Below, piece by piece: positions 268-32,622 of a stretch of DNA of 36,592 nt. The position numbers and the translations under genes were made by a program. Source of the stretch: a virus (lineage: Duplodnaviria > Heunggongvirae > Uroviricota > Caudoviricetes); the IMG/VR virus record IMGVR_UViG_2703718832_000006; one strand, 5' to 3'. The notes beneath the pieces are model-generated. The model was not told where the DNA came from, ran no database searches, and saw nothing but the letters and a program-made list of their open reading frames with translations. Every line of letters begins with the position of its first letter. The first letter of the stretch is position 1.

Positions 268-300
268 AAGCCCTCGCGTTGAGGGCTTTACTGATTTTTT
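268..300 (+). terminator. putative rho-independent terminator downstream of grxA
   Basis: GC-rich hairpin (aagccctc / gagggctt) followed within a few nt by a T-run; read by eye, approximate. Confidence 0.45.
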
Positions 301-665
301 CTGTGCTGTGGTTTAAACAAACTACTGATAAATAAGAAACACAGTGCCCCCAGCGCACACCAGAACACCGCACTTAATAACCATGCCAGCTCTTGCCAGA
401 ATGAGCGCGTCGGTGAAAAAAACAGCCGCATAATGAGCATCGAACAGGGTGCCGCCAGCATTGCGCCAAACAGAGGTTTCAGGACTTCTCTACGCTGTGA
501 AAAGAAGCTGGCGACTGCTCCAGGAAGAATGAAAAATAGCAAGCCGATTTCAGGATGCCCGGCAGCCCGAAAAGCGCCTTTCATGTGCGTCGCCAGAAAA
601 AGGCACACCACAATGAAGAGGACAAAACAGCAGATTGCCCCCGCCCAACGTTGTTTATGTTTCAC
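288..665 (-). CDS. ybjM: inner membrane protein YbjM
   Basis: 125-aa strongly hydrophobic ORF, convergent with grxA and divergent from ybjL as in the E. coli K-12 grxA-ybjM-ybjL locus. Confidence 0.8.
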   Translation of the reverse strand: MKHKQRWAGAICCFVLFIVVCLFLATHMKGAFRAAGHPEIGLLFFILPGAVASFFSQRREVLKPLFGAMLAAPCSMLIMRLFFSPTRSFWQELAWLLSAVFWCALGALCFLFISSLFKPQHRKNQ

Positions 666-934
666 TCGTTCCTCCTGACACTGCGTCTATCGAACACATT
701 TTTCGCCAGTGTGGCGTTCAGTAAGATAAAGCCGCTTCGCATTCCATGCTAATATAGGCCAACGCAATTCATATAGCCGTTGATACCTAATGTGATTACA
801 CTAGTAAAATATATTGTTACTTTACTATCGTTTAGGTGCGCTGAATGAATCTGCGCCCTGAATTCTGGTAAAAAACATTATCGTAAATTACCATTTCTTT
901 CAACAGCTTACTAGTAAACAAGAAGTTAGCCTCC

Positions 935-2620
935 GTGAATATAAACGTCGCCGAATTGTTAAATGGGAATTACATTCTGTTATTATTTGTGGTCCTCGCG
1001 CTTGGGCTATGTCTCGGAAAGTTACGACTTGGTTCGATCCAACTGGGTAATTCCATTGGCGTTTTAGTCGTATCGCTGTTATTAGGCCAACAACATTTCA
1101 GCATTAACACCGATGCGCTTAATCTTGGCTTTATGCTGTTTATTTTCTGCGTCGGGGTCGAAGCCGGACCGAACTTTTTTTCCATTTTTTTTCGCGATGG
1201 GAAAAATTACCTAATGTTAGCACTGGTGATGGTTGGCAGTGCGCTGGTGATCGCCTTAGGGTTAGGTAAGCTGTTTGGCTGGGATATTGGCCTGACGGCC
1301 GGTATGTTAGCAGGCTCTATGACGTCGACACCGGTTCTGGTCGGTGCTGGCGATACACTGCGTCATTCCGGCATGGAAAGCAGGCAGCTCTCACTGGCAC
1401 TGGATAATCTGAGCCTCGGGTATGCCTTAACCTATTTAATCGGTCTGGTGAGTTTGATTGTTGGTGCGCGTTACTTGCCGAAATTGCAGCATCAGGACTT
1501 ACAGACCAGCGCCCAGCAAATCGCCCGCGAACGTGGCCTGGACACTGATGCCAACCGTAAGGTTTATTTACCGGTGATCCGCGCCTATCGCGTCGGCCCG
1601 GAACTGGTGGCCTGGACCGACGGCAAAAATCTGCGTGAACTGGGTATTTATCGACAAACCGGCTGCTACATTGAACGTATTCGACGTAACGGGATTCTGG
1701 CAAATCCAGACGGTGATGCCGTGCTACAAATGGGCGATGAAATAGCGTTGGTAGGCTATCCCGACGCCCATGCCCGACTCGATCCCAGCTTCCGTAACGG
1801 TAAAGAAGTTTTCGATCGTGACCTTCTCGACATGCGTATCGTCACTGAAGAAGTGGTCGTTAAAAACCATAACGCTGTAGGTAAACGTCTCGCACAACTG
1901 AAGTTGACCGATCACGGTTGCTTCCTTAACCGCGTCATTCGTAGCCAGATTGAGATGCCGATAGATGACAACGTCGTGCTTAACAAAGGTGACGTTTTAC
2001 AAGTCAGCGGCGATGCCCGCCGCGTAAAAACCATCGCCGATCGCATCGGCTTTATCTCGATTCACAGCCAGGTCACTGACCTGCTGGCATTCTGCGCCTT
2101 CTTTGTTATTGGGCTGATGATCGGGATGATCACCTTCCAGTTCAGCACATTCAGTTTCGGCATGGGGAACGCTGCCGGGTTGTTATTCGCCGGAATTATG
2201 CTGGGCTTTATGCGTGCTAACCACCCGACCTTCGGTTACATTCCGCAGGGTGCATTAAGCATGGTGAAAGAGTTCGGCTTGATGGTGTTTATGGCAGGCG
2301 TTGGTCTGAGCGCCGGTAGCGGTATTAATAACGGCCTGGGCGCGATTGGCGGTCAGATGTTGATTGCCGGATTGATTGTCAGTCTGGTGCCCGTGGTTAT
2401 CTGTTTCTTGTTCGGTGCTTATGTATTGCGAATGAACCGCGCGCTGTTGTTCGGCGCAATGATGGGCGCACGTACCTGCGCGCCGGCAATGGAGATCATC
2501 AGTGATACAGCTCGCAGTAACATCCCGGCGCTGGGCTATGCGGGCACCTATGCAATCGCCAACGTCCTGCTGACGCTGGCAGGGACAATCATCGTCATGG
2601 TATGGCCAGGATTAGGATAA
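935..2620 (+). CDS. ybjL: putative transporter YbjL (membrane transporter with central soluble domains)
   Basis: 561-aa ORF with hydrophobic N- and C-terminal blocks flanking a soluble middle; N-terminus [17 protein letters not shown] recognised as YbjL. Confidence 0.88.
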
Positions 2621-2732
2621 AACTGAAGTTGCCCTGAAAATGAAATTTTTTTGCACAACCGCAGAACTTTTCCGCAGGGCATCAGTCTTAATTAGTGCCA
2701 CTGCTTTTCTTTGATGTCCCCATTTTGTGGAG

Positions 2733-2776
2733 CCCATCAACCCCGCCATTTCGGTTCAAGGTTGATGGGTTTTTTG
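2733..2776 (+). terminator. putative rho-independent terminator after ybjL
   Basis: Inverted repeat cccatcaacc ... ggttgatggg followed directly by tttttt. Confidence 0.55.
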
Positions 2777-2855
2777 TTGCCTGAAATTTAAGCTGTTTAA
2801 AATCATGATGTTAGAAACACTGTTTTTTAACGATGGCGACAAAATGGCGGCAGCG

Positions 2856-3164: not shown

Positions 3165-4265
3165 TCATTCCATTTCGAAATCATCAATCCTCACTTCAAG
3201 CTCCAGACTGGTTGTAAAACCGTTATCGGGGCTGACGGTATGCGTCAGAGTCGTAATGGTCCATTCCGCATCATCTATCGGCTGTTTAAAGCCACTGACC
3301 TTCACAGGCATTTCTGTGTAGAGATCTGCCCGCCCTTCCGCCAGTTGTAGCGAGAATGATGCAACGCCGCGTTGCAGGCGTTCCCACTGCATTTTCGCTG
3401 CCCGTTCGGCGTTGCTCCGGTTGGCATAAGTGCGATTAAGTACCAGCACGTTTTCATCCGTACCCACCAGGTAATCGCCCTGCTTCGCTTCCGGCTCTTT
3501 CTTCTGCTTCTTAGTCCTGCGCTTACGCTTCACCGTGGTGCTTTCTTTCTTCGCGGGTTCGCGGGTATGCAACCAACTGGCAATTACGCCCGTGTAGGCT
3601 CCGCGATCTGCCAGGGTAAAGCGGTGACTGTCGCCGTCCTTACGTGTGATTGAGATCACCGGCAGTGGTTTACCGCTGGCGCTTTTGCCCTGTCCCTGCC
3701 GGATGAATAACAGATTGCCATTTTTCACCGACGCGATGGCACCGTACTGGCGCGCCAGCCGCATCAGAAAACTGCCGTCACTCTCATTAGTCTGGTCTAT
3801 ATGCTCCACGGGCTTATCCGACAGGTCTTTACCCAGTGCCATCTTCAGCTTATGACGCGCGGCTATTTCCTTCACCACTTCCCCGACAGTGGTCTTGTGC
3901 CACGATTTTTCACGGCGGGTATTCAGCGTTTCCCTAAAATCAGCACTTCGCGCCCGGATAGTCAGGCGATCCGGTGCGCCGGTGTGTTCAATCTCGTCCA
4001 CCGTGAATGCCCCTTTCGGGAAAAGCGGCTGCCCCTTCCAGCCCAGCGCCAGCGTGATGACCGCACCACGGCGCGGCAGCACGATTTTTCCGTCGGCGTC
4101 GTCCAGCTCCAGATCAAGCTGGTCTGCTTCAAAGCCCCGATTGTCCGTCAACGTCAGACTCATCAGGCGGTTATCCAGCACAGTGGTGATATCCTTCCCC
4201 TCAATACTGATGCTGAATGCGGGAGTTTTGTTGCCTTTGTTAAGCAGTTCAGAGCTGAAATTCAC
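3165..4265 (-). CDS. tail protein D (late control gene D protein)
   Basis: 366-aa ORF immediately upstream of ogr and downstream of U, the position of P2 gpD. Confidence 0.85.
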   Translation of the reverse strand: MNFSSELLNKGNKTPAFSISIEGKDITTVLDNRLMSLTLTDNRGFEADQLDLELDDADGKIVLPRRGAVITLALGWKGQPLFPKGAFTVDEIEHTGAPDRLTIRARSADFRETLNTRREKSWHKTTVGEVVKEIAARHKLKMALGKDLSDKPVEHIDQTNESDGSFLMRLARQYGAIASVKNGNLLFIRQGQGKSASGKPLPVISITRKDGDSHRFTLADRGAYTGVIASWLHTREPAKKESTTVKRKRRTKKQKKEPEAKQGDYLVGTDENVLVLNRTYANRSNAERAAKMQWERLQRGVASFSLQLAEGRADLYTEMPVKVSGFKQPIDDAEWTITTLTHTVSPDNGFTTSLELEVRIDDFEME

Positions 4266-10144: not shown

Positions 10145-10717
10145 TCAGGGGGATTCATTACTCTTATTTGCCGGAAATTTTCTATAAATTGTGGAAACAC
10201 CCACATCAAAAATCAGTGCAATACGCTGTCTTGATTCTCCGGCCTCGAGTAAGCGTCCAATCTGTGCCCACTGTTCGGTGGTCAACTTAGGACGGCGTCC
10301 ACCTACTCTGCCTTTATCACGAGCTGCAGCCAGCCCCGCCCTGGTACGTTCAACTATCAGTTCGCGTTCCATTTCAGCTAGGGCACCCATGACATGAAAA
10401 AAGAAACGGCCCATTGGGGTACTGGTATCAATACTGTCAGTCAGGCTTCTGAAATTCACACCACGCTGGCGCAACTCTTCTATCAGCGTAACAAGATGCC
10501 GCATACTGCGCCCCAACCTGTCCAGCTTCCAGACAACCAGCGTGTCTCCTGCCGATAGTGTCCTGAGTAGTTTTTTCAGCCCCGGTCTGTCGGACTTAGT
10601 GCCACTGATTTTGTCCTCAAAAATCCGCTCACATCCCGCGCAGTTCAGTGCATTACGTTGCAAATCGGTGTTCTGGTCATTTGTTGACACGCGTACATAG
10701 CCAATAAGCATGATCAT
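10145..10717 (-). CDS. site-specific DNA invertase, Hin/Gin/Cin/Pin serine recombinase family
   Basis: 190-aa ORF starting MIMLIGYVRVSTNDQNTDLQ (catalytic-serine region of small serine invertases) with a C-terminal HTH; inverted crossover sites flank the adjacent tail-fibre segment. Confidence 0.9.
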   Translation of the reverse strand: MIMLIGYVRVSTNDQNTDLQRNALNCAGCERIFEDKISGTKSDRPGLKKLLRTLSAGDTLVVWKLDRLGRSMRHLVTLIEELRQRGVNFRSLTDSIDTSTPMGRFFFHVMGALAEMERELIVERTRAGLAAARDKGRVGGRRPKLTTEQWAQIGRLLEAGESRQRIALIFDVGVSTIYRKFPANKSNESP

Positions 10718-10738
10718 CCCCCTGAATAAAAACCGGAG

Positions 10739-11137
10739 ATGATGCCAGTTAGCTGTTACCTCTGCATTTTCTTAAACGTTGGTTTGGGAGAAGCGGCGAA
10801 AAGGGATGTGGGCACAGGAGATAATCAGATACCGGATATGGGAGCATTCGCTTCTGGTTCGGGATGGTTCAGGCTACCAGGTGGATATATTGTTCAGTTT
10901 GGCACTTTTTCAGGAAACACGACCCGCTTTATCAGTGGACACTTCCCTATACCATTCCCTAATCAGCCGATGGTTTCAGTCAGTGTTATGTCTGATGCCG
11001 TTCAGTCAGACCCGTCGATTCCTGCCCCGCAGGTTTTGTCTGTAAATTTTGAACGTATCAGTAATTCAGCGTGGCGTGTGGCAACCAGTGATATCTCACA
11101 GCAATACAGATTCAGTTATATTTCGATAGGACGGTAG
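10739..11137 (+). CDS. alternate tail-fibre C-terminal coding segment (silent in this orientation)
   Basis: Frame open across the crossover site, where it encodes ...GLGE... exactly as H does at its own site; an inversion would fuse it in frame to the constant part of H. Confidence 0.6.
   Translation: MMPVSCYLCIFLNVGLGEAAKRDVGTGDNQIPDMGAFASGSGWFRLPGGYIVQFGTFSGNTTRFISGHFPIPFPNQPMVSVSVMSDAVQSDPSIPAPQVLSVNFERISNSAWRVATSDISQQYRFSYISIGR
10767..10792. repeat. inversion crossover site (hix/gix-like 12-2-12 site), invertase-proximal copy
   Basis: ttttcttaaacg tt ggtttgggagaa; the right half-site is identical to the half-site in H at 12646-12657 in inverted orientation. Confidence 0.6.
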
Positions 11138-11139
11138 AA

Positions 11140-11580
11140 ATGCAGAAATATATTTTCAGTGCCGATAAAAATGCGTTTTTCCCTGTGGAGCTTAAAATCG
11201 CTTATCAGGAATCCGGCGAATGGCCCGATGATGGAATCGAAATTGACGACACTGTTGCTGCCGAATTTATGAAGGAAGCACCAGAAGGAAAATACAGAGG
11301 TGTCATCGACGGAATGCCTGCATGGATTGATATTCCACCGCCAACTCATGAGGAACAAATTGCCGCAGCCGAACTGAAAAAGCAGCAATTGATTAATCAG
11401 GTCAACGAATACATAAACAGTAAGCAATGGCCTGGTAAAGCGGCGATTGGTCGCCTGAAAGGTGAGGAACTGGTGCAATATAATTTGTGGCTGGATTATC
11501 TGGACGCACTGGAACTGGTCGATACTTCCGGTGCGCCAGATATTGAATGGCCTACGCCTCCGGCAGTTCAGGCCAGATGA
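11140..11580 (+). CDS. tail fibre assembly chaperone (alternate, partner of the silent fibre segment)
   Basis: 146-aa ORF directly after the alternate fibre segment; its C-terminus (DTSGAPDIEWP) parallels that of the G-like protein on the opposite strand (DTSTAPDVIWP). Confidence 0.65.
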   Translation: MQKYIFSADKNAFFPVELKIAYQESGEWPDDGIEIDDTVAAEFMKEAPEGKYRGVIDGMPAWIDIPPPTHEEQIAAAELKKQQLINQVNEYINSKQWPGKAAIGRLKGEELVQYNLWLDYLDALELVDTSGAPDIEWPTPPAVQAR

Positions 11581-12154
11581 CATCAGGCGCGGTGCTGGTA
11601 TCTGTTGCCGTCACCGCGTCAATATAATCCAGCACAGCGTTAAGTCGGGTTGTTTCTGCCTGCGTCAGCTTCCGTCCGGCCTGTAATTTCAGTTGAATCA
11701 GACTGATGGAAGACATTGCTGCATCAATCAGTGACTGGCGCTGTGCTTCTGCCGCTTCTACTGCGGCGCTATGCTGTGCCTCAGTATCCGTCACCCATTT
11801 CTCACCATCCCATTTATCATATGGCGTTAACGGGGCGATAGTGGTTGTATTTTCAGGGTAATCACCCAGAGATGTGATTTCTTTCGATTCTCCTGTTTCG
11901 GTGCTATAGATGATTTCACCGCGATGGTCTGGCACATATTCCCATGAGTTAAAATCTGCAGAGCGGCAGATTGCATAACCGGCTTTATGTGTACCTGGTG
12001 CATCTAAGCATGAATACGCCGGAATACCGACACCCACAGCAAGGTATTCGGTTGATGTGGAAAGATATTCCTTCGTCTCAGCATCAAAATTATAAACGGT
12101 AATGTTTCCTGCCTTTGTAGTAATGAGTTCGCTATTTAATACGGCTTTATTCAT
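11552..12154 (-). CDS. tail fibre assembly protein G
   Basis: 200-aa ORF whose start overlaps the H stop by 1 nt; P2 gpG position. Confidence 0.8.
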   Translation of the reverse strand: MNKAVLNSELITTKAGNITVYNFDAETKEYLSTSTEYLAVGVGIPAYSCLDAPGTHKAGYAICRSADFNSWEYVPDHRGEIIYSTETGESKEITSLGDYPENTTTIAPLTPYDKWDGEKWVTDTEAQHSAAVEAAEAQRQSLIDAAMSSISLIQLKLQAGRKLTQAETTRLNAVLDYIDAVTATDTSTAPDVIWPELPEA

Positions 12155-22149: not shown

Positions 22150-23916
22150 ATGAACACCACACTGACACCCGCAGATCTCGATCCCCGTCGGCAGGCCATG
22201 CTGCTGTACTTTCAGGGATACCGCGTAGCCCGCATTGCTGAAATGCTGGGCGAGAAAGTTGCAACCGTTCACAGCTGGAAAAAACGCGACAAGTGGGGTG
22301 ACTATGGGCCGCTGGATCAGATGCAGCTCACCACCGCCGCACGCTACTGCCAGCTCATTATGAAGGAGCACAAAGAAGGGAAAGATTTCAAAGAGATTGA
22401 CCTGCTGGCGCGCCAGTCTGAGCGCCACGCGCGGATCGGCAAGTTTAACAATGGCGGCAACGAAGCCGACTTAAACCCTAACGTCACCAACCGCAATAAA
22501 GGCCCACGCCGTCAGCCGGAAAAGAATGTTTTCACCGATGAGCAGATTGAGAAGCTGGAAGAAATCTTCCATTCCTCCATGTTCAACTACCAGCGCCACT
22601 GGTGGGAAGCCGGAAAAACCAACCGCATCCGCAACCTGCTGAAGTCACGCCAGATCGGCGCGACCTTCTATTTTGCCCGTGAAGCCCTGATTGACGCCCT
22701 GCTTACCGGACGTAACCAGATTTTCCTTTCTGCCAGTAAGGCTCAGGCCCACGTCTTTAAACAATACATCATCGACTTCGCCAAAGAAGTCGAGGTGGAG
22801 CTAAAAGGCGATCCGATGGTGCTTCCTAACGGAGCCACGCTTTACTTCCTCGGCACCAATGCCCGCACGGCCCAGAGTTATCACGGCAACCTGTATCTGG
22901 ATGAATATTTCTGGATACCGAAATTCCAGGAGCTGCGCAAAGTGGCTTCCGGGATGGCTATTCACAAAAAATGGCGACAAACCTATTTTTCCACGCCATC
23001 CAGCCTGACCCACAGTGCTTATCCGTTCTGGTCCGGTGCGCTGTTCAACCGTGGACGCAACAAAGCTGACAAGGTGGACATCGACCTGTCCCACAGCAAT
23101 TTGGCCCCCGGCCTGCTGTGCGCAGACGGGCAATACCGCCAGATAGTCACCGTGGAAGATGCGGTGCGCGGCGGCTGTAACCTGTTCGACCTCGACCAGC
23201 TACGCATGGAGTACAGCCCGGACGAATACCAGAACCTGCTGATGTGCGAGTTCGTGGACGATCTCGCGTCCGTGTTCCCGCTCAGCGAACTGCAGGCGTG
23301 CATGGTGGACAGCTGGGAAGTCTGGACCGACTTTCATGCACTGGCCCTGCGCCCGTTTGGCTGGCGCGAAGTGTGGATCGGTTATGACCCGGCAAAAGGT
23401 ACGCAGAACGGCGACAGTGCCGGATGCGTGGTGGTGGCTCCGCCAGCCGTGCCGGGTGGTAAGTTCCGCATTCTTGAGCGTCACCAGTGGCGCGGGATGG
23501 ACTTCCGCGCCCAGGCTGACGCCATCAAAAAACTCACCGAACAGTACAACGTGACCTATATCGGTATCGACTCAACCGGCGTTGGTCACGGGGTTTATGA
23601 GAACGTGAAAGCGTTCTTTCCTGCCGTCCGGGAGTTTGTCTACAACCCCAATGTTAAAAACGCCCTGGTACTCAAGGCCTACGACATTATCAGCCACCGC
23701 CGTCTGGAGTTTGACGCCGGGCACACCGACATTGCGCTGTCATTCATGGCAATCCGTCGCGCCACCACCGCCAGCGGCAACCGCCCGACCTATGAAGCCA
23801 GCCGCAGCGAAGAAGCCAGCCACGCCGATCTGGCCTGGGCAACGATGCACGCACTGTTTAACGAACCGCTGCAGGGTGAATCCGCCAATACCAGCAATAT
23901 TGTGGAGATTTTTTGA
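22150..23916 (+). CDS. terminase large (ATPase) subunit P
   Basis: 588-aa ORF divergent from O; P2 gpP position and size. Confidence 0.9.
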   Translation: MNTTLTPADLDPRRQAMLLYFQGYRVARIAEMLGEKVATVHSWKKRDKWGDYGPLDQMQLTTAARYCQLIMKEHKEGKDFKEIDLLARQSERHARIGKFNNGGNEADLNPNVTNRNKGPRRQPEKNVFTDEQIEKLEEIFHSSMFNYQRHWWEAGKTNRIRNLLKSRQIGATFYFAREALIDALLTGRNQIFLSASKAQAHVFKQYIIDFAKEVEVELKGDPMVLPNGATLYFLGTNARTAQSYHGNLYLDEYFWIPKFQELRKVASGMAIHKKWRQTYFSTPSSLTHSAYPFWSGALFNRGRNKADKVDIDLSHSNLAPGLLCADGQYRQIVTVEDAVRGGCNLFDLDQLRMEYSPDEYQNLLMCEFVDDLASVFPLSELQACMVDSWEVWTDFHALALRPFGWREVWIGYDPAKGTQNGDSAGCVVVAPPAVPGGKFRILERHQWRGMDFRAQADAIKKLTEQYNVTYIGIDSTGVGHGVYENVKAFFPAVREFVYNPNVKNALVLKAYDIISHRRLEFDAGHTDIALSFMAIRRATTASGNRPTYEASRSEEASHADLAWATMHALFNEPLQGESANTSNIVEIF

Positions 23917-24959
23917 TGGGAAAGAGTAAGAAAAACCGCGCTGCGGCGACGAATCAGCTCAAGCATAAAAGCCAGACTTCAGCCGAAGCATTCAGCTTTG
24001 GCGATCCCGTTCCTGTTCTGGACCGCCGTGAACTGCTGGACTATGTGGAATGCGTACAGATGGACCGCTGGTATGAGCCGCCCGTCAGCTTTGACGGACT
24101 GGCACGAACCTTCCGCGCTGCCGTGCATCACAGCTCACCGATTGCAGTAAAATGCAACATTCTGACCAGTACCTACATCCCTCACCCGCTGCTCAGCCAG
24201 CAGGCTTTTTCACGTTTTGTGCAGGACTATCTGGTATTTGGTAACGCCTACCTGGAGAAACGCACGAACCGCTTCGGTGAAGTTATCGCCCTTGAGCCTG
24301 CTCTGGCAAAATATACCCGACGCGGGTTAGACCTGGATACCTACTGGTTTGTGCAATACGGTATGACAACCCAGCCGTATCAGTTCACGAAAGGCAGCAT
24401 TTTTCATCTGATGGAACCGGACATCAACCAGGAGATCTACGGCCTGCCAGGTTATCTTTCTGCCATTCCGTCAGCCCTGCTCAACGAGTCCGCCACGCTG
24501 TTCCGCCGGAAGTATTACATTAACGGCAGTCATGCAGGCTTCATCATGTACATGACCGATGCCGCGCAGAACCAGGAAGATGTGAACAACCTCCGCAATG
24601 CGATGAAAAGCGCCAAAGGTCCGGGCAACTTCCGCAACCTGTTTATGTACTCGCCTAACGGCAAAAAGGACGGGCTTCAGATTATCCCATTGTCAGAAGT
24701 TGCGGCGAAGGATGAGTTTCTGAATATCAAGAACGTGAGCCGTGATGACATGATGGCTGCGCACCGCGTGCCGCCGCAAATGATGGGGATTATGCCTAAT
24801 AATGTTGGAGGGTTTGGGGATGTGGAAAAAGCCGCGAAGGTTTTTGTCAGAAATGAGTTGGTTCCTTTGCAGAAAAGACTAGTTGAGCTAAACACCTGGA
24901 TAAATCAAAATATTGTGTCATTTAATGACTACATCCTTGACCAAGATAAGGGCATTTAA
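23913..24959 (+). CDS. portal (capsid vertex) protein Q
   Basis: 348-aa ORF overlapping the P stop by 4 nt; P2 gpQ position and size. Confidence 0.9.
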   Translation: MMGKSKKNRAAATNQLKHKSQTSAEAFSFGDPVPVLDRRELLDYVECVQMDRWYEPPVSFDGLARTFRAAVHHSSPIAVKCNILTSTYIPHPLLSQQAFSRFVQDYLVFGNAYLEKRTNRFGEVIALEPALAKYTRRGLDLDTYWFVQYGMTTQPYQFTKGSIFHLMEPDINQEIYGLPGYLSAIPSALLNESATLFRRKYYINGSHAGFIMYMTDAAQNQEDVNNLRNAMKSAKGPGNFRNLFMYSPNGKKDGLQIIPLSEVAAKDEFLNIKNVSRDDMMAAHRVPPQMMGIMPNNVGGFGDVEKAAKVFVRNELVPLQKRLVELNTWINQNIVSFNDYILDQDKGI

Positions 24960-25747
24960 TGCCCTTTTTTATCCTCATAAGCAACGTCATCGTATAATTT
25001 TAAGGCACCTAAATCATGTAATTGCTGCTTGAATTCCTTACTTAAACTAAACCCCTGAAGGAGAGAATATTTTTCAATAAATTTCTTGGCAGGCTTTCCT
25101 ACCGATGAAAAACCATTTAATAGCATCGCGCCAGATTCTATAGAAGATATTTGTGCTCTAACTAATTTCGCATACTTGGTTTTTTCTTTCTCAGTCAAAT
25201 AGTTAGAGTCATTGATATGTTTAAAAATATGGTAAATATTCCTGAAATAATGTCCCACATTCGCAAAATTGTCACCTTCCAGATAAACCATATTAACTGA
25301 AAGCTCTAACCTTTCATCCAAAGGAAGTGAATCATCCACAATATTAAGTAGGTTAAACTTCACTTCGGTAATGTATAATGAAAGAGCCTCCCGTCCTACA
25401 TACACTTTTCCATCTGAATACGTTGTTTTAATTTCTGATAAGTTATCTTTATGAAATCTTAGTAACTCAAATAACACAGACTCGAATGACTGAATAGATG
25501 ACTGCCTAGATGTAGAATATAGTGTGAAACAAACAAGCATGATAGAGATAAAGGCCAGAGCAGGATTCAGTACACCACCAATATAATCGCCAAACTGTCC
25601 CCATTTCTCTACGGAATCACTCCATGAATACATTCCAAATTTACAAACATAGCTAACAAACACTATCAGCATTAAAATAAAAGCCAAAAACAACAGTGAA
25701 TAAATAATGGCATAACGCTTAATATTTCGAAGAATGGCACCACACAT
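24956..25747 (-). CDS. membrane protein with two N-terminal transmembrane helices and a roughly 190-aa soluble C-terminal domain (cargo, function unknown)
   Basis: The track ORF 24956..25813 begins with a non-ATG codon and overlaps the upstream gene; the first ATG (Met 23, at 25747) has an AAGG about 10 nt upstream; two hydrophobic helices (AIIYSLLFLAFILMLIVFV and ALAFISIMLVCFTLY); AT-rich codon usage. Confidence 0.55.
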   Translation of the reverse strand: MCGAILRNIKRYAIIYSLLFLAFILMLIVFVSYVCKFGMYSWSDSVEKWGQFGDYIGGVLNPALAFISIMLVCFTLYSTSRQSSIQSFESVLFELLRFHKDNLSEIKTTYSDGKVYVGREALSLYITEVKFNLLNIVDDSLPLDERLELSVNMVYLEGDNFANVGHYFRNIYHIFKHINDSNYLTEKEKTKYAKLVRAQISSIESGAMLLNGFSSVGKPAKKFIEKYSLLQGFSLSKEFKQQLHDLGALKLYDDVAYEDKKGH

Positions 25748-25758
25748 CTCACAATACC

Positions 25759-26136
25759 TTATATATAATCCATATTTAAATCTATTGTATAAATACCTTT
25801 CCTCGCCACACAAGGAATAGATTTCTTTAAAATTCTAACATTTTTAATTTCCCACACATAATAACCTGGAGACCAAGGCTTATTAAGAGTTGTTTCTTGG
25901 TTTTGTTTTAAGTAATCCTCATATGACCAATTTCTAACTGAAACAAAATCGACAATAGCCATAGCCACCCCATGATCTATATCGCTTTGATTTTTAAGAT
26001 ATTTATCATTCTGAACAAGAATGACGTTTTTTAATGGTATCGTTTCAGGATACCACGACCGTATTTCGATAGATTTAGAACCATTTATAATATTTTCTAC
26101 CGCTGGAGTCAAAATCGATATAGCTTGAAACTTCAT
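25759..26136 (-). CDS. ASCH-domain protein (PUA-like fold)
   Basis: 125-aa ORF with the N-terminal GxKxxExR signature of ASCH domains (GSKSIEIR). Confidence 0.6.
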   Translation of the reverse strand: MKFQAISILTPAVENIINGSKSIEIRSWYPETIPLKNVILVQNDKYLKNQSDIDHGVAMAIVDFVSVRNWSYEDYLKQNQETTLNKPWSPGYYVWEIKNVRILKKSIPCVARKGIYTIDLNMDYI

Positions 26137-26201
26137 GCTCTATCCTCTACTATGCTAAGGCTATAACATTCTAACATAAATAAATAAACGGAGGTAATAC
26201 T

Positions 26202-26747
26202 ATGTTAATTTTCATAGCAGGTGTTCATGGTGTAGGCAAAGGTTACTTGTGTTCATTTGCAAAAGATGATTTCGGGGTAACTCATGTAAGCGCAAGCGAA
26301 CTTATAAAAAATAATTCTAATATTAAATTTGATAACAGTAAGTTAACGGCCACACCTGATAAAAACCAATCAATATTACTTACGGCACTTAATGCATTAA
26401 AGTTAAAGGTATCCAATATTTTATTGGATGGTCATTTTACCTTAATAAATAAAAATGGAGATATTGAAGTTCTCAAGCAAGAAGTATTTGAGGAAATGGG
26501 GCTAGATGGAGTAATTTTAGTTGAGGAGTCTCCCGATACAATTAGAGAACGAATAATGAAACGAGATGGGAGTGATATTACTTATGATTTAAATAAGCTG
26601 ATGGAAGCTGAAAGAGAAAACGCAAAATATGTTACAAATAAAATCAATGTACCATTAATTATCTTAGAATCCCCAACAACAAACGATTTATCTATTGCCC
26701 TAGAAAAACTGGGCATGGTTAAGAAACATGCCCAGACAACATTATAA
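26202..26747 (+). CDS. small P-loop NTPase, kinase-like
   Basis: 181-aa ORF with a Walker A-like loop at the N-terminus (IFIAGVHGVGKGYL) and a hydrophobic-strand aspartate (ILLDGHF); GGAGG RBS before the ATG. Confidence 0.65.
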   Translation: MLIFIAGVHGVGKGYLCSFAKDDFGVTHVSASELIKNNSNIKFDNSKLTATPDKNQSILLTALNALKLKVSNILLDGHFTLINKNGDIEVLKQEVFEEMGLDGVILVEESPDTIRERIMKRDGSDITYDLNKLMEAERENAKYVTNKINVPLIILESPTTNDLSIALEKLGMVKKHAQTTL

Positions 26748-27134
26748 ATAACGATAAGACTGTGGGGCGACGCCGCCGGGAATCAACTCATTTAAGTCGA
26801 CAGGGAATTTATATCTTTTAGGGCTTTTGATGGAAATAGCAAAAGCCTTTTCTCTTTGGTGGAAATAATCTTTAAAAAAAGAATGTGTAATTCCTGCATG
26901 AGCTTTCGTTTTATCCCACAATTCTGAAGGGGATAGAGCAAGAATATCTCCTACTTTAAATTCACCTATTACTTTGCCAACCGGCATCGTTGCGTAAATA
27001 ACTATCGTATCAACATTTTTATTTCTAAAAATATTTTTCCGAAACTCATATTTTTTTTTACCAGAAAGTATACTCTCTGCATACTCTGGCTTAATCGATA
27101 ATAAAACTTTCATCAACACCTCCCTGTAAGACAA
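26742..27134 (-). CDS. ASCH-domain protein (PUA-like fold)
   Basis: 130-aa ORF with the ASCH GxKxxExR signature (SGKKKYEFR); the start may be Met 8 (27113); its stop overlaps the convergent kinase stop by 6 nt. Confidence 0.6.
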   Translation of the reverse strand: MSYREVLMKVLLSIKPEYAESILSGKKKYEFRKNIFRNKNVDTIVIYATMPVGKVIGEFKVGDILALSPSELWDKTKAHAGITHSFFKDYFHQREKAFAISIKSPKRYKFPVDLNELIPGGVAPQSYRYL

Positions 27135-27672
27135 TCTGCTTAAATGCTGAATCAGTTAGTGGTAAAAAACCCCAATAATCACTATTGGTATAACCTGTAA
27201 TATTCATGATTTCATCACGAATAACTCTTTTTTCCAAAGGGAAATTATAAGTAAACCGTATAATTATCGGATAATTTTTTTTCATATATAGAAGCTGTAA
27301 CTCATCTTCATCAAAAACGCTATAAGGTTCACAGTAATTCTTAAATTCCTCATAAGTTAAGAAATCGTGAATATCTTTAATTTCCTGAACCACACACACT
27401 GAAGTTGCAACAGATCTAAACCGAGCTGGACCTTGTCCATCTGAAGTACGATAAATAAGCAAATTATCTCCAGGCTTTAGGCTGGCTACCCCATGCATTT
27501 TTGTTAAGTATACTTTTTCAATACTGTTGGTATGTGATATATCAGCGATGATACCAGCACTCTCATTGTGGAGTTTTGACTCAGGGAAAAGACGTGTATG
27601 CCATGCAGGATAAATACTTAATAAATAATTTCTCCCCTGCAATTTGACTAAGGGATAATTAGCATAGCTCAT
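27091..27672 (-). CDS. hypothetical protein (193 aa), middle gene of the GNAT-ASCH operon
   Basis: ORF packed between the GNAT and ASCH genes with a 3-nt gap upstream and an overlap downstream; no motif I can assign with confidence. Confidence 0.5.
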   Translation of the reverse strand: MSYANYPLVKLQGRNYLLSIYPAWHTRLFPESKLHNESAGIIADISHTNSIEKVYLTKMHGVASLKPGDNLLIYRTSDGQGPARFRSVATSVCVVQEIKDIHDFLTYEEFKNYCEPYSVFDEDELQLLYMKKNYPIIIRFTYNFPLEKRVIRDEIMNITGYTNSDYWGFLPLTDSAFKQIVLQGGVDESFIID

Positions 27673-27675
27673 TTT

Positions 27676-28146
27676 TTACTCCTTCCATACCAAGTTTTTA
27701 AAGTATACACCTTCTTGCCCATTAATCGTAGAAAGATTTTTCCTCGCCTTTAAAACAAAACCATATTTAGTTAATAAGCGAATTAATCCTGAATGCTTAT
27801 CAAATATAGTAACATATACTTCTTTTAGTTTGTTTCTCATAGCAAATTGAAACATAATTCTAATAAAACGCTCTCCAAGTTTGGTTCCATGAGCATCGAT
27901 TTTAAATGTGCCAAGCTTTACTCGCTTCATCTTTGGAAACGTTGGAGTCATATCACTCAACTCTTCATCTTCTATTTTCAAATAGAGAAAACCATCGATT
28001 TCACCTAATTCATTACGTGATACAAACGCCTTATTTTTACCTTTTGAGAGAAACCAAACATCAAATCCTTCATAATCAGCTCTTAGGCTGTTAAAAAACG
28101 GATCTTTTAAATCGATATCACTAAAAAATTTTTCCTCGATAGACAT
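27676..28146 (-). CDS. GNAT-family N-acetyltransferase-like protein
   Basis: 156-aa ORF with a GNAT-like core pattern (HGTKLGERFIRIMFQFA ... LIRLLTKYGF); fold assignment is by eye only. Confidence 0.5.
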   Translation of the reverse strand: MSIEEKFFSDIDLKDPFFNSLRADYEGFDVWFLSKGKNKAFVSRNELGEIDGFLYLKIEDEELSDMTPTFPKMKRVKLGTFKIDAHGTKLGERFIRIMFQFAMRNKLKEVYVTIFDKHSGLIRLLTKYGFVLKARKNLSTINGQEGVYFKNLVWKE

Positions 28147-28320
28147 CCAGTTCCTCTTCTAATGGCAGCGAGCAAGTGACCTTATCCTTACATGTTAATA
28201 GATAACCACAGCTGTAGGCAATTACATACATTAAGCTCTATCAAACAACGAGCAAACTTAAGCACCGCTACAACTCAACCTAGCTGATGCCTGTTTTGAC
28301 GATTACCCTATCAGCGCGCG

Positions 28321-28339
28321 CTCGTATCCCCGCCACGCC
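28321..28339 (-). other. cos-like cohesive-end site
   Basis: Minus-strand GGCGTGGCGGGG..., matching from memory the first 12 nt of the 19-nt cohesive ends of P2 and 186. Confidence 0.4.
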
Positions 28340-28380
28340 TGCCCGCTTTATGTAGTGGTTTTCATGCACCTGCATGATCT

Positions 28381-28408
28381 ACGCAAAAGCCCGCCAGTTC
28401 TGGCGGGC
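28381..28408 (-). terminator. putative rho-independent terminator after the DinI-like gene
   Basis: Stem gcccgccag / ctggcgggc with a 3-nt loop, followed on the minus strand by TTTTGCG. Confidence 0.45.
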
Positions 28409-28543
28409 CTTAGCAAAAACGATCCTCAAACGATCATGCGATCTCATGCGGCATAGACATGCACTACAGAGCTAACGCCTCGCAAGGGCTCGTTGTTCAA
28501 CCTTGCTGACGCCAGAAGCAAGTTCAGACGCCAGCAACGTTTC

Positions 28544-29129: not shown

Positions 29130-31544
29130 TTAATACAGGTTCCGCCACTTATCATCTTCCTGCAAACGCTGGTTCCGATAGAAGATACGCAGGCCTGCTC
29201 CTGACGGAATGCTGCCGCCGCGAAGGAGTAAATCGACTTCTTTCTCGCTGCCATCAAATCCTCTGGACTTCAGTTCATAGACGAGCTGCTGTCGTTGATG
29301 GTCTGTAATTCGCTGTTTGTAGTCTCTACGCCGTTTCGGTTTCACCAGGCGTAACCTTACAGCCAGTTCCCGGCGCTCTTTTTTGTTCATACTGTGCAGG
29401 TAATCGTGCAACTCCTTGTCATCCATACGGGTGATATCCGTTCTGGTATCCCCATCAGCTGATTTGTCTTTCCCTTGTTGGTACAAATTTTCAGCAAGGG
29501 GACAGTTATTGCCACGAGTCCAAGGGGCGCAAGCGCCCTGGTCGGCTGCCGCCTCCTGAACGTCAACGGCCTTACGAACCATTTTCCACTTCACTGCATG
29601 AGTGCAAATCTTGCCCTGTACAATGGGTGACCAGATGCCATAAATACGAATACCGTGATCGCCATAAGCAGTCGGCTCTTCGTTAATTTCATAAGCTGTT
29701 CTGATAAGGTGATATTTGCGGGGAACCAGTACGCCGCCCTGCTTCATGATGTAGGTGGCAAAACAACCAGCATCAGCAGCAGCCAGGATGGCATCAAGGC
29801 GCGGGTTATCCAGTACCGGCGCACCTGCTTTTTTGTCCCCCTGTTGCCTTGCCGCCTGACCAGCCAGCAATCGCAGTTCACGGTAAGCCTGACGCCCCGG
29901 AATGCCAAAGAAGCGGAATTGCTGAACACGATGCAGAGACGCCCAGGCATTAACGTATTCAGCATTATCACGCAGGGATTTACCCGTTTCCTTGCTGATC
30001 TCGCCAGCCAGACCACGCCCGTCAATGTTCTTACTGATGTATTTCGCGATGTAGCTTGTCGGTGTTCCTTTGCGTGGGTTTATCAGCTCAGATTTAAAGC
30101 GTGGACCAGTGTTATTACCCAGTTCCTCGCGGTCTTCACGGATGGCAAACTTACGCAACAATGCAGTAATGGCGCGGCGGTCTTTTTTGCGCATGAAACA
30201 CATGAGATGCCAGTGCACAGTACCGTCATGGTGCGGCTCAGCCACCCGCACGCCATACCAGCGCAACCCGGCTTTGTGCATAGCCTTACGAAATGCAGCA
30301 AACATGCCGACCAGATAATCGCTGCTTTGTCTTACCGTCGCATTTGTCCAGGTCGGGTTGGGTCTGCCGTTGTTGAGCGTGGAATGGAAACGTGACGGAC
30401 AGGTGATAGTGTAGAAAACGGCGCAGTCACCACGCATTTCTGCGATAAGCTCCAGACCTTTAACACAGGCCATCATCTCATTGCGGCGATGTGCCGGGTT
30501 GCTGCTGCTGGCGTTTACCACATCTTCCATATCCAGCGTGTCGCCGTCTTCGTTCACCAGTTCATGAGAACGGAAAAACTCCAGCGACTTACGGCGCTGC
30601 TCACGTTTATGCGTCACGGCTTCATAGCTGACATAGGGAGATGCTTTTTTGCTGACCAGGCAGACAGCACGCAACTGCTCTTCCCGCCATTCGCAACGCA
30701 TCTTCCACAATTTTCGATACCACCAGTCGGCGCAAAGCATACGTGCCAGCGAACCCGGTATGAGTTCATAGGGCACGGGTTTGCGGCGGTTTCTTTTCCG
30801 GCGGAGTTGCTCAAACGCAGGCGGGATAACATCCAGTCGCAGGGTTTCCGCTGCCACCTTTTCCCATGTCTTGCGGATTTCTTCTGGCTTAACGTCATCG
30901 GTGGCATATAAATCGCCACAAGCGGCATCAAGGCACATGCTCATATGCGCAGCTACCAGGGTGGACAGGCGTTTTACCTGATCCTGACTCATTTCAGGCA
31001 GGATCAGCAGGCCCTCAAGCCCTTGATGGCTTGCCATAAAACGGAAAGAAGCGGATAGCTGACTGTCGCGTACACAATCCAGTCGCTCCAGACATGGCTT
31101 AATCGTCTCACGCAAATAGCGGGAATAAGCCTTTGGCCTGCCCAGGCTGCTGAAGTATTCGATACGTTGCATCAGCGGCTTGCTGATGTGGGTAGGCTGG
31201 GCGCTGACATCTGCCAGAATGACCATGTCCGGGTTAAAAAGCTGCTGCTCATGCGCAAGCTTTGCGCGGCTAATGAGCTTATCCTGCTCCATTTCGCGCT
31301 GGACAGGATCACGGGATTCATTAAAGAAATAACGCTCCCAGACCTGCTCACTCAGTGCCTCGCGGCGCAGTTGTTCCTGCTCGTTATCGGCAGCATACAG
31401 AGTGATCAGGTTTGAAAGTGCAGACTCCGGCGCAAATTCCGCCGGGTCCAGATAAGGGTTAATGGCCTTTTTCGGGCCGTTCCATGAAAATGATGCAGCG
31501 GCCTCGTTAAAGCCGCTAGAGTTGCTCATATCGTCATGACTCAT
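29130..31544 (-). CDS. replication initiation protein A (rolling-circle nicking protein)
   Basis: 804-aa ORF in the position of P2/186 gene A; contains a tyrosine pair (YIAKYI) resembling the rolling-circle initiator active site. Confidence 0.88.
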
Positions 31545-32398
31545 ACACGCACCTCGTACACAGCAGAACTATCTACGCCACGCGAAGGATCAAATCCCAC
31601 CCAGCAGCGCGCCCCGGAAACAGCAATGATTTCTGTTGCAGATTTACTATCACCAGCTGCCACACCGATGCTGCGTTTTGCCTTGATGTAGTGGTGAGTA
31701 AAATTGCGATACAGCGAACGGATCAGGGATGTGTCACTGTTAGAAACAATGACGGGATGTCCTTCTGATGACCGATGTTCAAGAACGGATGCCAGGTGAT
31801 ACTGGTCATCTTCAGTGAAGCCGTCAGTGTGATAACCGGAAAACGTACCGTCATAAGGCGGATCGCAATACACCACATCCCCCACCTGCAGCATCGCCAG
31901 CGTTTCATCAAAGCTGGCGCAGATAAACGTTGCTCGCTGGGCTTTCTCTGCAAATGCGCGAATTTCTTTTTCAGGGAAATACGGATTTTTATAATTACCG
32001 TAGGGAATGTTGAAATGCCCGCTCTTGTTATAGCGACATAAACCACGGTAACCGTGACGATTGAGATACAGGAAATATACCGCTTTCATGAAATCAGTAA
32101 TTTCAGTTGAGTAATTAAACTCCTGCCTTATGTTGTAATAAGCCACCTCCCTGTTTGCGATCTCAAATAAAACTCTGGCGCGAGATATAAACGATTCACA
32201 ATCAGCGGCAACCTTTTTATAGAGGTTGATTAAATCAGGATTAATATCCGCAACCAGATAGCTGGGATAATCCGTCTCCATCATCACAGCACAGGAACCC
32301 GCGAAAGGTTCAACCAGTCGCGGGCCAGCAGGAAGATGTTTTTTCAGTTCGGACATTATGGCAGTTTTATTTCCCGCCCATTTCAGGATGGTGCTCAT
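31541..32398 (-). CDS. DNA N6-adenine methyltransferase (Dam family)
   Basis: Start placed at Met 21 ([11 protein letters not shown]...); DPPY catalytic motif (VYCDPPYDG) and an N-terminal AdoMet-binding region (FAGSCAV). Confidence 0.85.
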
Positions 32399-32622
32399 AC
32401 AGCACCTCCGTTGTAATGTTTGCCTTTCAGCTCTGCGATTTCCTGACAGGTAATGCAAAGCTGCACACCCGGAATGGCACGGCGGCGTGCTGGCGGAATT
32501 GGCGCTTCACACTCAATGCAAAGCACGCGGGACACGCCCGGCGTTTTGGCACGGGCAGCACGGATATGGCGTTGGCGTTCTTCTTCAACGCGCTGCTGTA
32601 CGAGATCCATTGCATCAGCCAT
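32395..32622 (-). CDS. TraR/DksA-family C4 zinc-finger protein
   Basis: 75-aa ORF with CIECEAPIP...CITCQ four-cysteine pattern. Confidence 0.7.
   Translation of the reverse strand: MADAMDLVQQRVEEERQRHIRAARAKTPGVSRVLCIECEAPIPPARRRAIPGVQLCITCQEIAELKGKHYNGGAV

Follow-up and report, generated by a model that had tools for sequence, protein, structure and literature searches.

An ASCH protein and an AbiC-family membrane protein encoded beside PDC-M11 genes in a P2-like prophage: a candidate extended defence cassette

The locus and its genes

We analysed a window of 36,592 nt, the full length of the IMG/VR virus record IMGVR_UViG_2703718832_000006, with respect to two neighbouring genes that encode a small ASCH protein (ASCH-2) and a membrane protein of the AbiC/AbiP family (here AbiC). 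A preliminary description made from the sequence had interpreted this pair as a possible sensor-effector unit of abortive infection. The two genes form one end of a cassette of six open reading frames (ORFs; 24956-28146, 33% GC), which further comprises genes for a nucleoside monophosphate (NMP) kinase-like protein, a second ASCH protein (ASCH-1) and two halves of a GNAT-type protein (Table 1). The latter two proteins, as B and A components, define PDC-M11, a two-gene system that is one of 145 untested PADLOC candidates (Payne et al., bioRxiv 10.1101/2024.01.29.577857). We consider it probable that the pair belongs to an extended form of this candidate system.

Both genes were found on the minus strand at the positions given in the preliminary description, as indicated by their ORFs and by RefSeq counterparts with identical boundaries in E. 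coli MLI104K1, namely WP_000671717 ("ASCH domain-containing protein") and WP_000333697 ("putative phage abortive infection protein"). The ORF boundaries of the whole island recur in RefSeq for 8 of 5,426 complete E. coli genomes, all of them at least 99.7% identical over the island. An alternative upstream TTG start for AbiC would overlap ASCH-2 and is supported neither by homologues nor by RefSeq. The gap between the two genes, previously given as 12 nt, is one nucleotide shorter (Table 1). Because the genes are co-oriented, lack a terminator between them and retain a short spacing of 9-24 nt in Kosakonia, Providencia and Erwinia (L002-L004), ASCH-2 and AbiC are likely carried on one transcript, as had been proposed. 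A promoter upstream of ASCH-2 is inferred from an extended -10-like element and a Shine-Dalgarno sequence in the divergent intergenic region, while a consensus scan of the minus strand of this region returned no strong promoter site. A promoter scan yielded 7 sites compared with 14.7 expected from shuffles, meaning no enrichment, and a repeat scan of the island returned chance AT-rich matches only.

Table 1. Positions of the cassette genes and of other features in the window
Feature	Position	Strand	Details
AbiC/AbiP-family ("putAbiC") inner-membrane protein	24956-25747	-	263 aa; two N-terminal transmembrane helices; ATG at 25747
Spacer, ASCH-2 stop to AbiC start	25748-25758	-	11 nt; no terminator-like site
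ASCH-2	25759-26136	-	125 aa; small divergent ASCH-fold (PUA-like) protein; GSKSIEIR motif
Divergent intergenic region, ASCH-2/kinase gene	26137-26201		65 bp; extended -10-like element TGTTAGAAT and Shine-Dalgarno AGAGGA upstream of ASCH-2, read by eye
NMP-kinase-like P-loop protein	26202-26747	+	181 aa; Walker A GVHGVGKG
ASCH-1 (PDC-M11B)	26742-27113	-	123 aa from RefSeq start; ORF reaches 27134
PDC-M11A, C-terminal half (M11A_C)	27091-27672	-	193 aa; PADLOC PDC-M11A 5.9e-69, profile 166-357 of 357
PDC-M11A, N-terminal half (M11A_N)	27676-28146	-	156 aa; GNAT-acetyltransferase-like; PADLOC PDC-M11A 1.1e-58, positions 11-160
Terminator-like hairpin	24948-24966		8 bp, AAGGGCAT TTA ATGCCCTT, then T run; over the 4-nt-overlapping stops of the convergent portal and AbiC genes
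Portal gene	23913-24959	+	flanks the island
Non-coding stretch	28150-28540		hairpin at 28383-28414
DinI-like gene and replication gene	29130-31544	-	flank the island
D12-class (Dam-like) N6-adenine DNA methyltransferase	31541-32458	-	prophage early region
Host genes ybjM, ybjL and RybB small RNA	288-2778		
RybB small RNA gene	2700-2778	+	Rfam 105 bits
gpD	3165-4265		
Hin/Cin-type serine invertase	10145-10717	-	Resolvase and HTH_7 domains
Invertase with tail-fibre C-terminal and tail-fibre-assembly ORFs	10145-11583		

The AbiC-family membrane protein

Kyte-Doolittle hydropathy placed two hydrophobic helices of the membrane protein at about 12-36 and 55-78. The AlphaFold2 (AF2) model, with a predicted local distance difference test (pLDDT) score of 87.7, contains a transmembrane hairpin (helices 13-37 and 46-105), a 60-residue helix that runs out of the second transmembrane segment and an all-helical domain. 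Topology and structure prediction, proposed earlier as checks, are thus in agreement with the two N-terminal transmembrane helices of the preliminary description. The soluble domain lies beyond the long stalk helix and comprises about 185 residues, close to the 190 initially estimated, whereas the view that it carries no recognisable motif had to be abandoned. The Pfam family PF16872 (putAbiC) matches residues 163-231 with 68.1 bits (cut-off 22, E 9.9e-19), and the PADLOC models for AbiC and AbiP match at 9.4e-6 and 3e-4, respectively, with no match to the PDC-M11 models. Across 37 aligned family members, 29 match the PADLOC AbiC model and 22 the AbiP model (best values 1.6e-8 and 1.9e-12). 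Invariant residues are Q86, E89, H166-Y-x-R169-N170, Y192, Q199, S201 and E204. By sequence, the protein can therefore be placed, as a remote member, in the abortive-infection group of lactococcal AbiC/P. The N-terminus follows the positive-inside rule and homologues elsewhere carry an ATP-dependent kinase domain fused to their C-terminus, two features that assign the C-terminal domain to the cytoplasm and give an N-in topology. The suggestion of abortive infection fits these results, the family being named after lactococcal AbiC and the locus being the gpA-gpQ hotspot of P2.

A different role can be proposed for an inner-membrane protein that is encoded in AT-rich prophage cargo and whose family (phrog_8999) is listed in PHROGs as of unknown function. 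It could serve in lysogenic conversion or superinfection exclusion, for instance by keeping DNA out at the inner membrane, or simply be a generic moron of the prophage, with the ASCH gene as unrelated cargo. We regard this as very improbable given the putAbiC domain, the AbiC/AbiP model matches and the location of the conserved polar residues in the cytoplasmic domain. Further, a Foldseek search with the AbiC model found no match among viral structures, which argues against a known virion or exclusion-protein fold. Lactococcal AbiC works after DNA entry, lowering capsid-protein production while DNA replication is unaffected (2026 review, PMC13064643). Finally, GmrSD-type, OLD-like and DUF1016 proteins are encoded next to AbiC homologues, and this supports a defence role for the family. 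Structure comparison of AbiC itself assigned no function, and when plasmids were searched by tblastn with an AbiC-like homologue from a Firmicute, neither a Lactococcus record nor lactococcal AbiC was reached.

The AbiC family is large, with at least 402 relatives in many phyla when one genome per species is counted. Its genes are solitary in 74 of the best 80 genomic loci, where they have unrelated neighbours; 45 co-directional upstream neighbours in these loci contain no recurring family. In four cases a nuclease-type gene directly follows a solitary AbiC-like gene, encoding either a GmrSD-type modification-dependent nuclease (L075:6752-8551, L076:2281-4077, L058:7200-9533) or a DUF1016/YhcG PD-(D/E)XK nuclease (L037:6900-7916), and in two of them the genes overlap by 8-11 nt. 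These arrangements may represent further two-gene systems that contain an AbiC-like protein. An OLD-like ATPase gene lies directly upstream of some homologues. A distinct set of relatives consists of putAbiC::AAA_17 kinase fusions of 420-467 aa (about 75 clusters at 90% identity; P0080-P0158; L072:5974-7272), most of which come from metagenomes of the gut or the environment. In each of the four fusion lineages examined (L072, P0126, P0104, P0144), the fusion gene lies downstream of PDC-M11A and an ASCH gene.

ASCH-2

The segment G19-S-K-S-I-E-I-R26 of ASCH-2 corresponds to the GxKxxExR signature of ASCH domains and is invariant in 13 homologues. The score against the Pfam ASCH family (PF04266) is 19.5 bits, just under the gathering score of 21.2. 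The AF2 model (pLDDT 84.5) retrieved ASCH domains as all of its top 14 Foldseek matches in the PDB, with probabilities of 0.97-1.0 and TM-scores of 0.48-0.63. Those of CXorf40A/EOLA1, TRIP4 and ZmASCH are among them, with a probability of 1.0 and TM-scores of 0.5-0.63. The motif and these fold matches uphold the original assignment as an ASCH protein. A profile search of PDB sequences with ASCH-2 gave chance matches only, and no PADLOC model matched.

Close homologues (at least 63% identical) are all enterobacterial, and the wider family is small, with 210 representatives at E<=1e-3 among 1.84 billion proteins (HMMER). A Pfam scan of ten relatives, nine of them clearly longer than ASCH-2, identified fusions in seven, with a GNAT domain in five of them, a dCMP/cytidine deaminase domain in another and a nucleotidyltransferase domain (NTP_transf_6) in the last; the fused relatives are P0225, P0227, P0233, P0258, P0268, P0249 and P0222. 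These fusion partners hint at a cytosine- or nucleotide-centred chemistry for the subfamily.

The two ASCH proteins of the island had been described as paralogues, and their joint presence as unusual. BLASTP finds no similarity between them and hhalign aligns just a 23-residue region around the N-terminal motif, so that recent paralogy is ruled out and the two are not closely related. Nor do two ASCH genes stand out among P2 cargo, since Table S5A of Rousset et al. contains 143 mentions of "ASCH". The third gene of the P2 "old-tin" construct cloned in that study matches DUF3850/ASCH.

Conservation and variants of the cassette

ASCH-1 matches the PADLOC PDC-M11B model at 2e-49 as well as Pfam ASCH (6e-9) and DUF3850. 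PDC-M11A is represented by two ORFs. Its N-terminal half corresponds to phrog_13728 ("acetyltransferase", 3.9e-52), and its C-terminal half has no match in Pfam and none among PDB sequences. The stop codon of the first ORF (27676-27678), one further codon and the ATG of the second (27672) are all in frame. Outside P2, one polypeptide of about 350 aa makes up the whole of PDC-M11A. The split is common to every P2-type cassette, with junctions that are adjacent and in frame, one codon apart, or formed by a 13-nt overlap in another frame; with the two-ORF form kept in all of these cassettes across three junction configurations, a pseudogene is ruled out. The kinase matches Pfam AAA_17 (3e-18) and ADK (4e-5), adenylate and UMP-CMP kinase models of NCBIfam, adenylate kinase 1 in the PDB (4e-6) and phrog_761 ("thymidylate kinase"), and is by these profile matches related to adenylate and UMP-CMP kinases.

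Locus samples were the best 80 from pattern-seeded scans, which makes all frequencies approximate. At least eight genera of enterobacteria have orthologues of ASCH-2 and AbiC in this arrangement, with 42-83% identity. In Kosakonia, Providencia, Erwinia and Serratia, P2-like prophages share the order M11A_N, M11A_C, ASCH-1, kinase (reversed), ASCH-2, AbiC and portal, which is also that of 17 contigs from IMG/VR and 8 from metagenomes. Identities fall in parallel for M11A_C (100 to 59%), ASCH-2 (100 to 44%) and AbiC (100 to 42%), and the identity of the prophage backbone varies independently. Since the components co-diverge independently of the backbone, the cassette moves as a unit.

Loci outside P2 carry an unsplit PDC-M11A and ASCH-1, followed by a co-directional kinase gene, by kinase and AbiC genes (L154) or by an AbiC::kinase fusion. 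This fusion after M11A and ASCH-1 was observed in L072, in three more diverged lineages (L162-L170) and in 14 metagenome loci; L072, L154 and L162-L170 are Bacteroidales-type operons and lie in unrelated contexts. An ASCH-1-like::NMP-kinase fusion (P0165, L172:541-1500) follows a C-terminal fragment of PDC-M11A and adds another fusion link of the Rosetta-stone kind between components of the system. Among roughly 51 PDC-M11A loci from metagenomes with enough sequence downstream, AbiC is present in about 24 and the kinase in about 28. Gene neighbourhoods and the AbiC::kinase and ASCH::kinase fusions together show a linkage of AbiC and kinase to PDC-M11A/B that is conserved across phyla.

The variants also bear on the role of ASCH-2, whose gene adjoins the divergent kinase gene in all 24 ASCH-2-bearing viral loci, including a Kosakonia-type cassette in which the kinase gene is frameshifted (L002:4996-5492, L089:5957-6453) and ASCH-2 and AbiC are intact. 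In P2-type loci L010, L102 and L103, kinase and ASCH-2 are jointly absent and AbiC directly follows ASCH-1, and the same holds for L195 and L196. ASCH-2 could therefore be a partner of the NMP-kinase-like or GNAT protein in making, reading or erasing a modified nucleotide, its place before AbiC being a matter of operon packing. The ASCH-1::kinase fusion and the GNAT, deaminase and nucleotidyltransferase fusions of ASCH-2 relatives point in the same direction, and the E. coli ASCH protein YqfB is an N4-acylcytidine amidohydrolase. Within the motif G-x-K-x-x-E-x-R, however, ASCH-2 has E at what we take to be the position of the catalytic T of YqfB, and an enzymatic activity is not inferable from it. 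Further, all non-P2 variants contain the kinase without ASCH-2, and whenever an ASCH-2-bearing locus has AbiC, ASCH-2 lies directly upstream of it. We thus see the partnership as a serious but less favoured possibility. ASCH-2 is probably linked to the GNAT/kinase part of the cassette, and its occurrence shows it to be an optional, lineage-restricted accessory of enterobacteria, as far as the sampled loci go.

In a model built on the preliminary description, ASCH-2 would sense phage nucleic acid and release or activate the AbiC-type effector, the rest of the island being a neighbouring system. Consistent with this are the co-orientation and conserved short spacing of the pair, the presence of ASCH-2 in 17 of 19 P2-type viral loci that carry AbiC, and a possible promoter of its own for ASCH-2 in a separate divergent intergenic region. 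Moreover, ASCH domains bind RNA or DNA, and PDB complexes of TRIP4 with double-stranded DNA are among the fold matches of ASCH-2. A dedicated two-gene unit would nevertheless be expected to persist as such, and strict co-occurrence was not observed. AbiC is absent without remnant from 7 of 24 ASCH-2-bearing viral loci, which retain kinase and ASCH-2, and from one metagenomic locus of the same kind; conversely, AbiC does without ASCH-2 in the three P2-type loci above, directly after ASCH-1, and in the Bacteroidales-type operons (L072, L154, L162-L170). By far the most AbiC homologues are solitary, no PADLOC model recognises ASCH-2, and every pair observed was accompanied by PDC-M11A/B and the kinase; searches seeded with ASCH-2 returned only the PDC-M11 cassette. 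A sensor-effector relationship is possible as a local interaction within the cassette, but it is disfavoured by comparative genomics and we hold it to be unlikely.

Prophage setting

Host genes ybjM and ybjL and the RybB small RNA occupy the left part of the window, and a P2/186-like prophage fills the rest, from gpD to the CI repressor and the integrase at the right edge. The GC content falls from about 55% to 33% across 24960-28200, between the portal gene on one side and the DinI-like and replication genes on the other. This position is the cos-proximal gpA-gpQ locus, which Rousset et al. (2022, PMC9122126) established as a hotspot at which P2-like phages carry anti-phage genes. Between the portal and AbiC genes, which converge on the terminator-like hairpin, there is no room for cos, so that cos must lie across the island, in the non-coding stretch that has a hairpin of its own (Table 1). 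A search for a P2 cos sequence gave no match, which is uninformative.

Three further observations concern the prophage as a whole. The RybB gene stands about 390 nt from gpD, with ybjM/ybjL on one side and the end of the prophage on the other, and the prophage may be integrated beside rybB. The serine invertase gene adjoins oppositely oriented tail-fibre C-terminal and tail-fibre-assembly ORFs, a region that looks like an invertible host-range switch. The adenine methyltransferase gene lies upstream of the replication gene.

Interpretation

Taken together, we favour the interpretation that the pair is the distal end of a six-ORF accessory cassette in a P2-like prophage hotspot, which probably represents the candidate defence system PDC-M11 in an extended form that includes an AbiC-type membrane protein. 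Its parts are the GNAT-type PDC-M11A in two ORFs, PDC-M11B/ASCH-1, the NMP-kinase-like protein, ASCH-2 and the AbiC/AbiP-family protein. A lysogen expressing the cassette would abort infection by other phages. The GNAT/ASCH/kinase part would act on, or read, a nucleotide or nucleic acid that appears in infection, and the AbiC-type protein would be the membrane-anchored executor that blocks late phage development, by likeness to lactococcal AbiC/AbiP. ASCH-2, from the same mRNA as AbiC, may be an accessory nucleic-acid- or nucleotide-binding modulator of the enterobacterial P2 version and would not be an obligatory sensor for AbiC.

Several points weigh against an extended system of this kind, beginning with the approximate nature of the sampled frequencies. 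A and B stand alone in 48 of the best 80 viral PDC-M11A loci and in 22 of the roughly 51 metagenomic ones; AbiC and kinase are thus additions that can be dispensed with, and they could make up a system of their own that is frequently inserted next to PDC-M11. In a rough neighbour-joining tree, the AbiC proteins of P2 cassettes and of the fusions are not sister clades. Either the association of AbiC with PDC-M11 arose twice or the tree is unreliable, and we do not lean on it. Lactococcal AbiC and AbiP are only remotely similar (E 1e-5 to 1e-12 over about 75-100 residues), and the roles of PDC-M11 and of this AbiC branch are predicted ones.

A more specific and speculative version, to which we assign a low likelihood, would make the whole cassette one system in which cytosolic enzymes make, read or erase a modified (e.g. 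N4-acylated) cytosine nucleotide or nucleic acid and this signal gates AbiC, with ASCH-2 as a second reader or eraser that tunes the switch in enterobacterial P2 prophages. If true, it would give a first insight into how AbiC works, a question unanswered since 1992, and would establish a class of membrane effectors coupled to nucleotide modification. AbiC-family proteins are widespread and, like the founding lactococcal AbiC, mechanistically opaque. A clade tied to a GNAT-ASCH-kinase module by operons, and by fusion in two phyla, provides testable partners and possible ligands, and hence a route into the AbiC mechanism. The data further suggest that PDC-M11 often has three to five components instead of the two genes of its definition. 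For annotation, we recommend naming the membrane protein as AbiC-family and not listing the ASCH and membrane protein pair as a system in its own right.

Comparison with known systems

The gene families, the listing of the arrangement and the PDC-M11 candidate are already known. The arrangement is listed by WP accession in Table S5A of Rousset et al., where it is uncurated and untested (PMC9122126); it was not found in the main text or the other supplementary text of that study, and there was no sign of it among the cloned and tested systems. Literature on putAbiC, PDC-M11 and ASCH in combination with anti-phage yielded nothing on the cassette, with PDC-M11 mentioned incidentally. The recurrent coupling of AbiC-family proteins and NMP kinases to PDC-M11, including the fusions, and the P2-specific insertion of ASCH-2 appear to be undescribed in the literature searched.

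Lactococcal AbiC has two transmembrane helices and a soluble domain that superimposes on AbiP, which has one transmembrane helix, binds RNA better than single-stranded DNA and requires its transmembrane segment; fold comparison gave no function for either protein (PMC13064643). The membrane protein described here shares with lactococcal AbiC (pTN20) and AbiP the N-terminal transmembrane anchor, the all-helical soluble domain, putAbiC, carriage on mobile elements and membership in a family of mostly single genes. It differs in its distant similarity (E ~1e-5), its Gram-negative prophage setting and its place in a multi-gene GNAT/ASCH/kinase cassette, and elsewhere in being fused to a kinase. 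Members of the AbiC/AbiP group would be expected to act as single genes; most homologues are solitary, and the protein described here and its clade occur only within the PDC-M11 cassette.

As in PDC-M11, both defining genes are adjacent and score strongly, immediately upstream of the pair (26742-28146). The definition of that system covers A and B only; here A is split, and the attached kinase, ASCH-2 and AbiC fall outside it. ASCH-2 shares the PUA-like beta-barrel fold and GxKxxExR with the ASCH domains of TRIP4/ASC-1, EOLA1/CXorf40A, the ZmASCH ribonuclease and E. coli YqfB, and is unlike them in its score below the Pfam gathering threshold and in having no sequence-level PDB match. With the cargo of the P2 old/tin hotspot (PMC9122126), finally, the cassette has in common its place between replication and portal genes, its AT-richness and its swappable nature.

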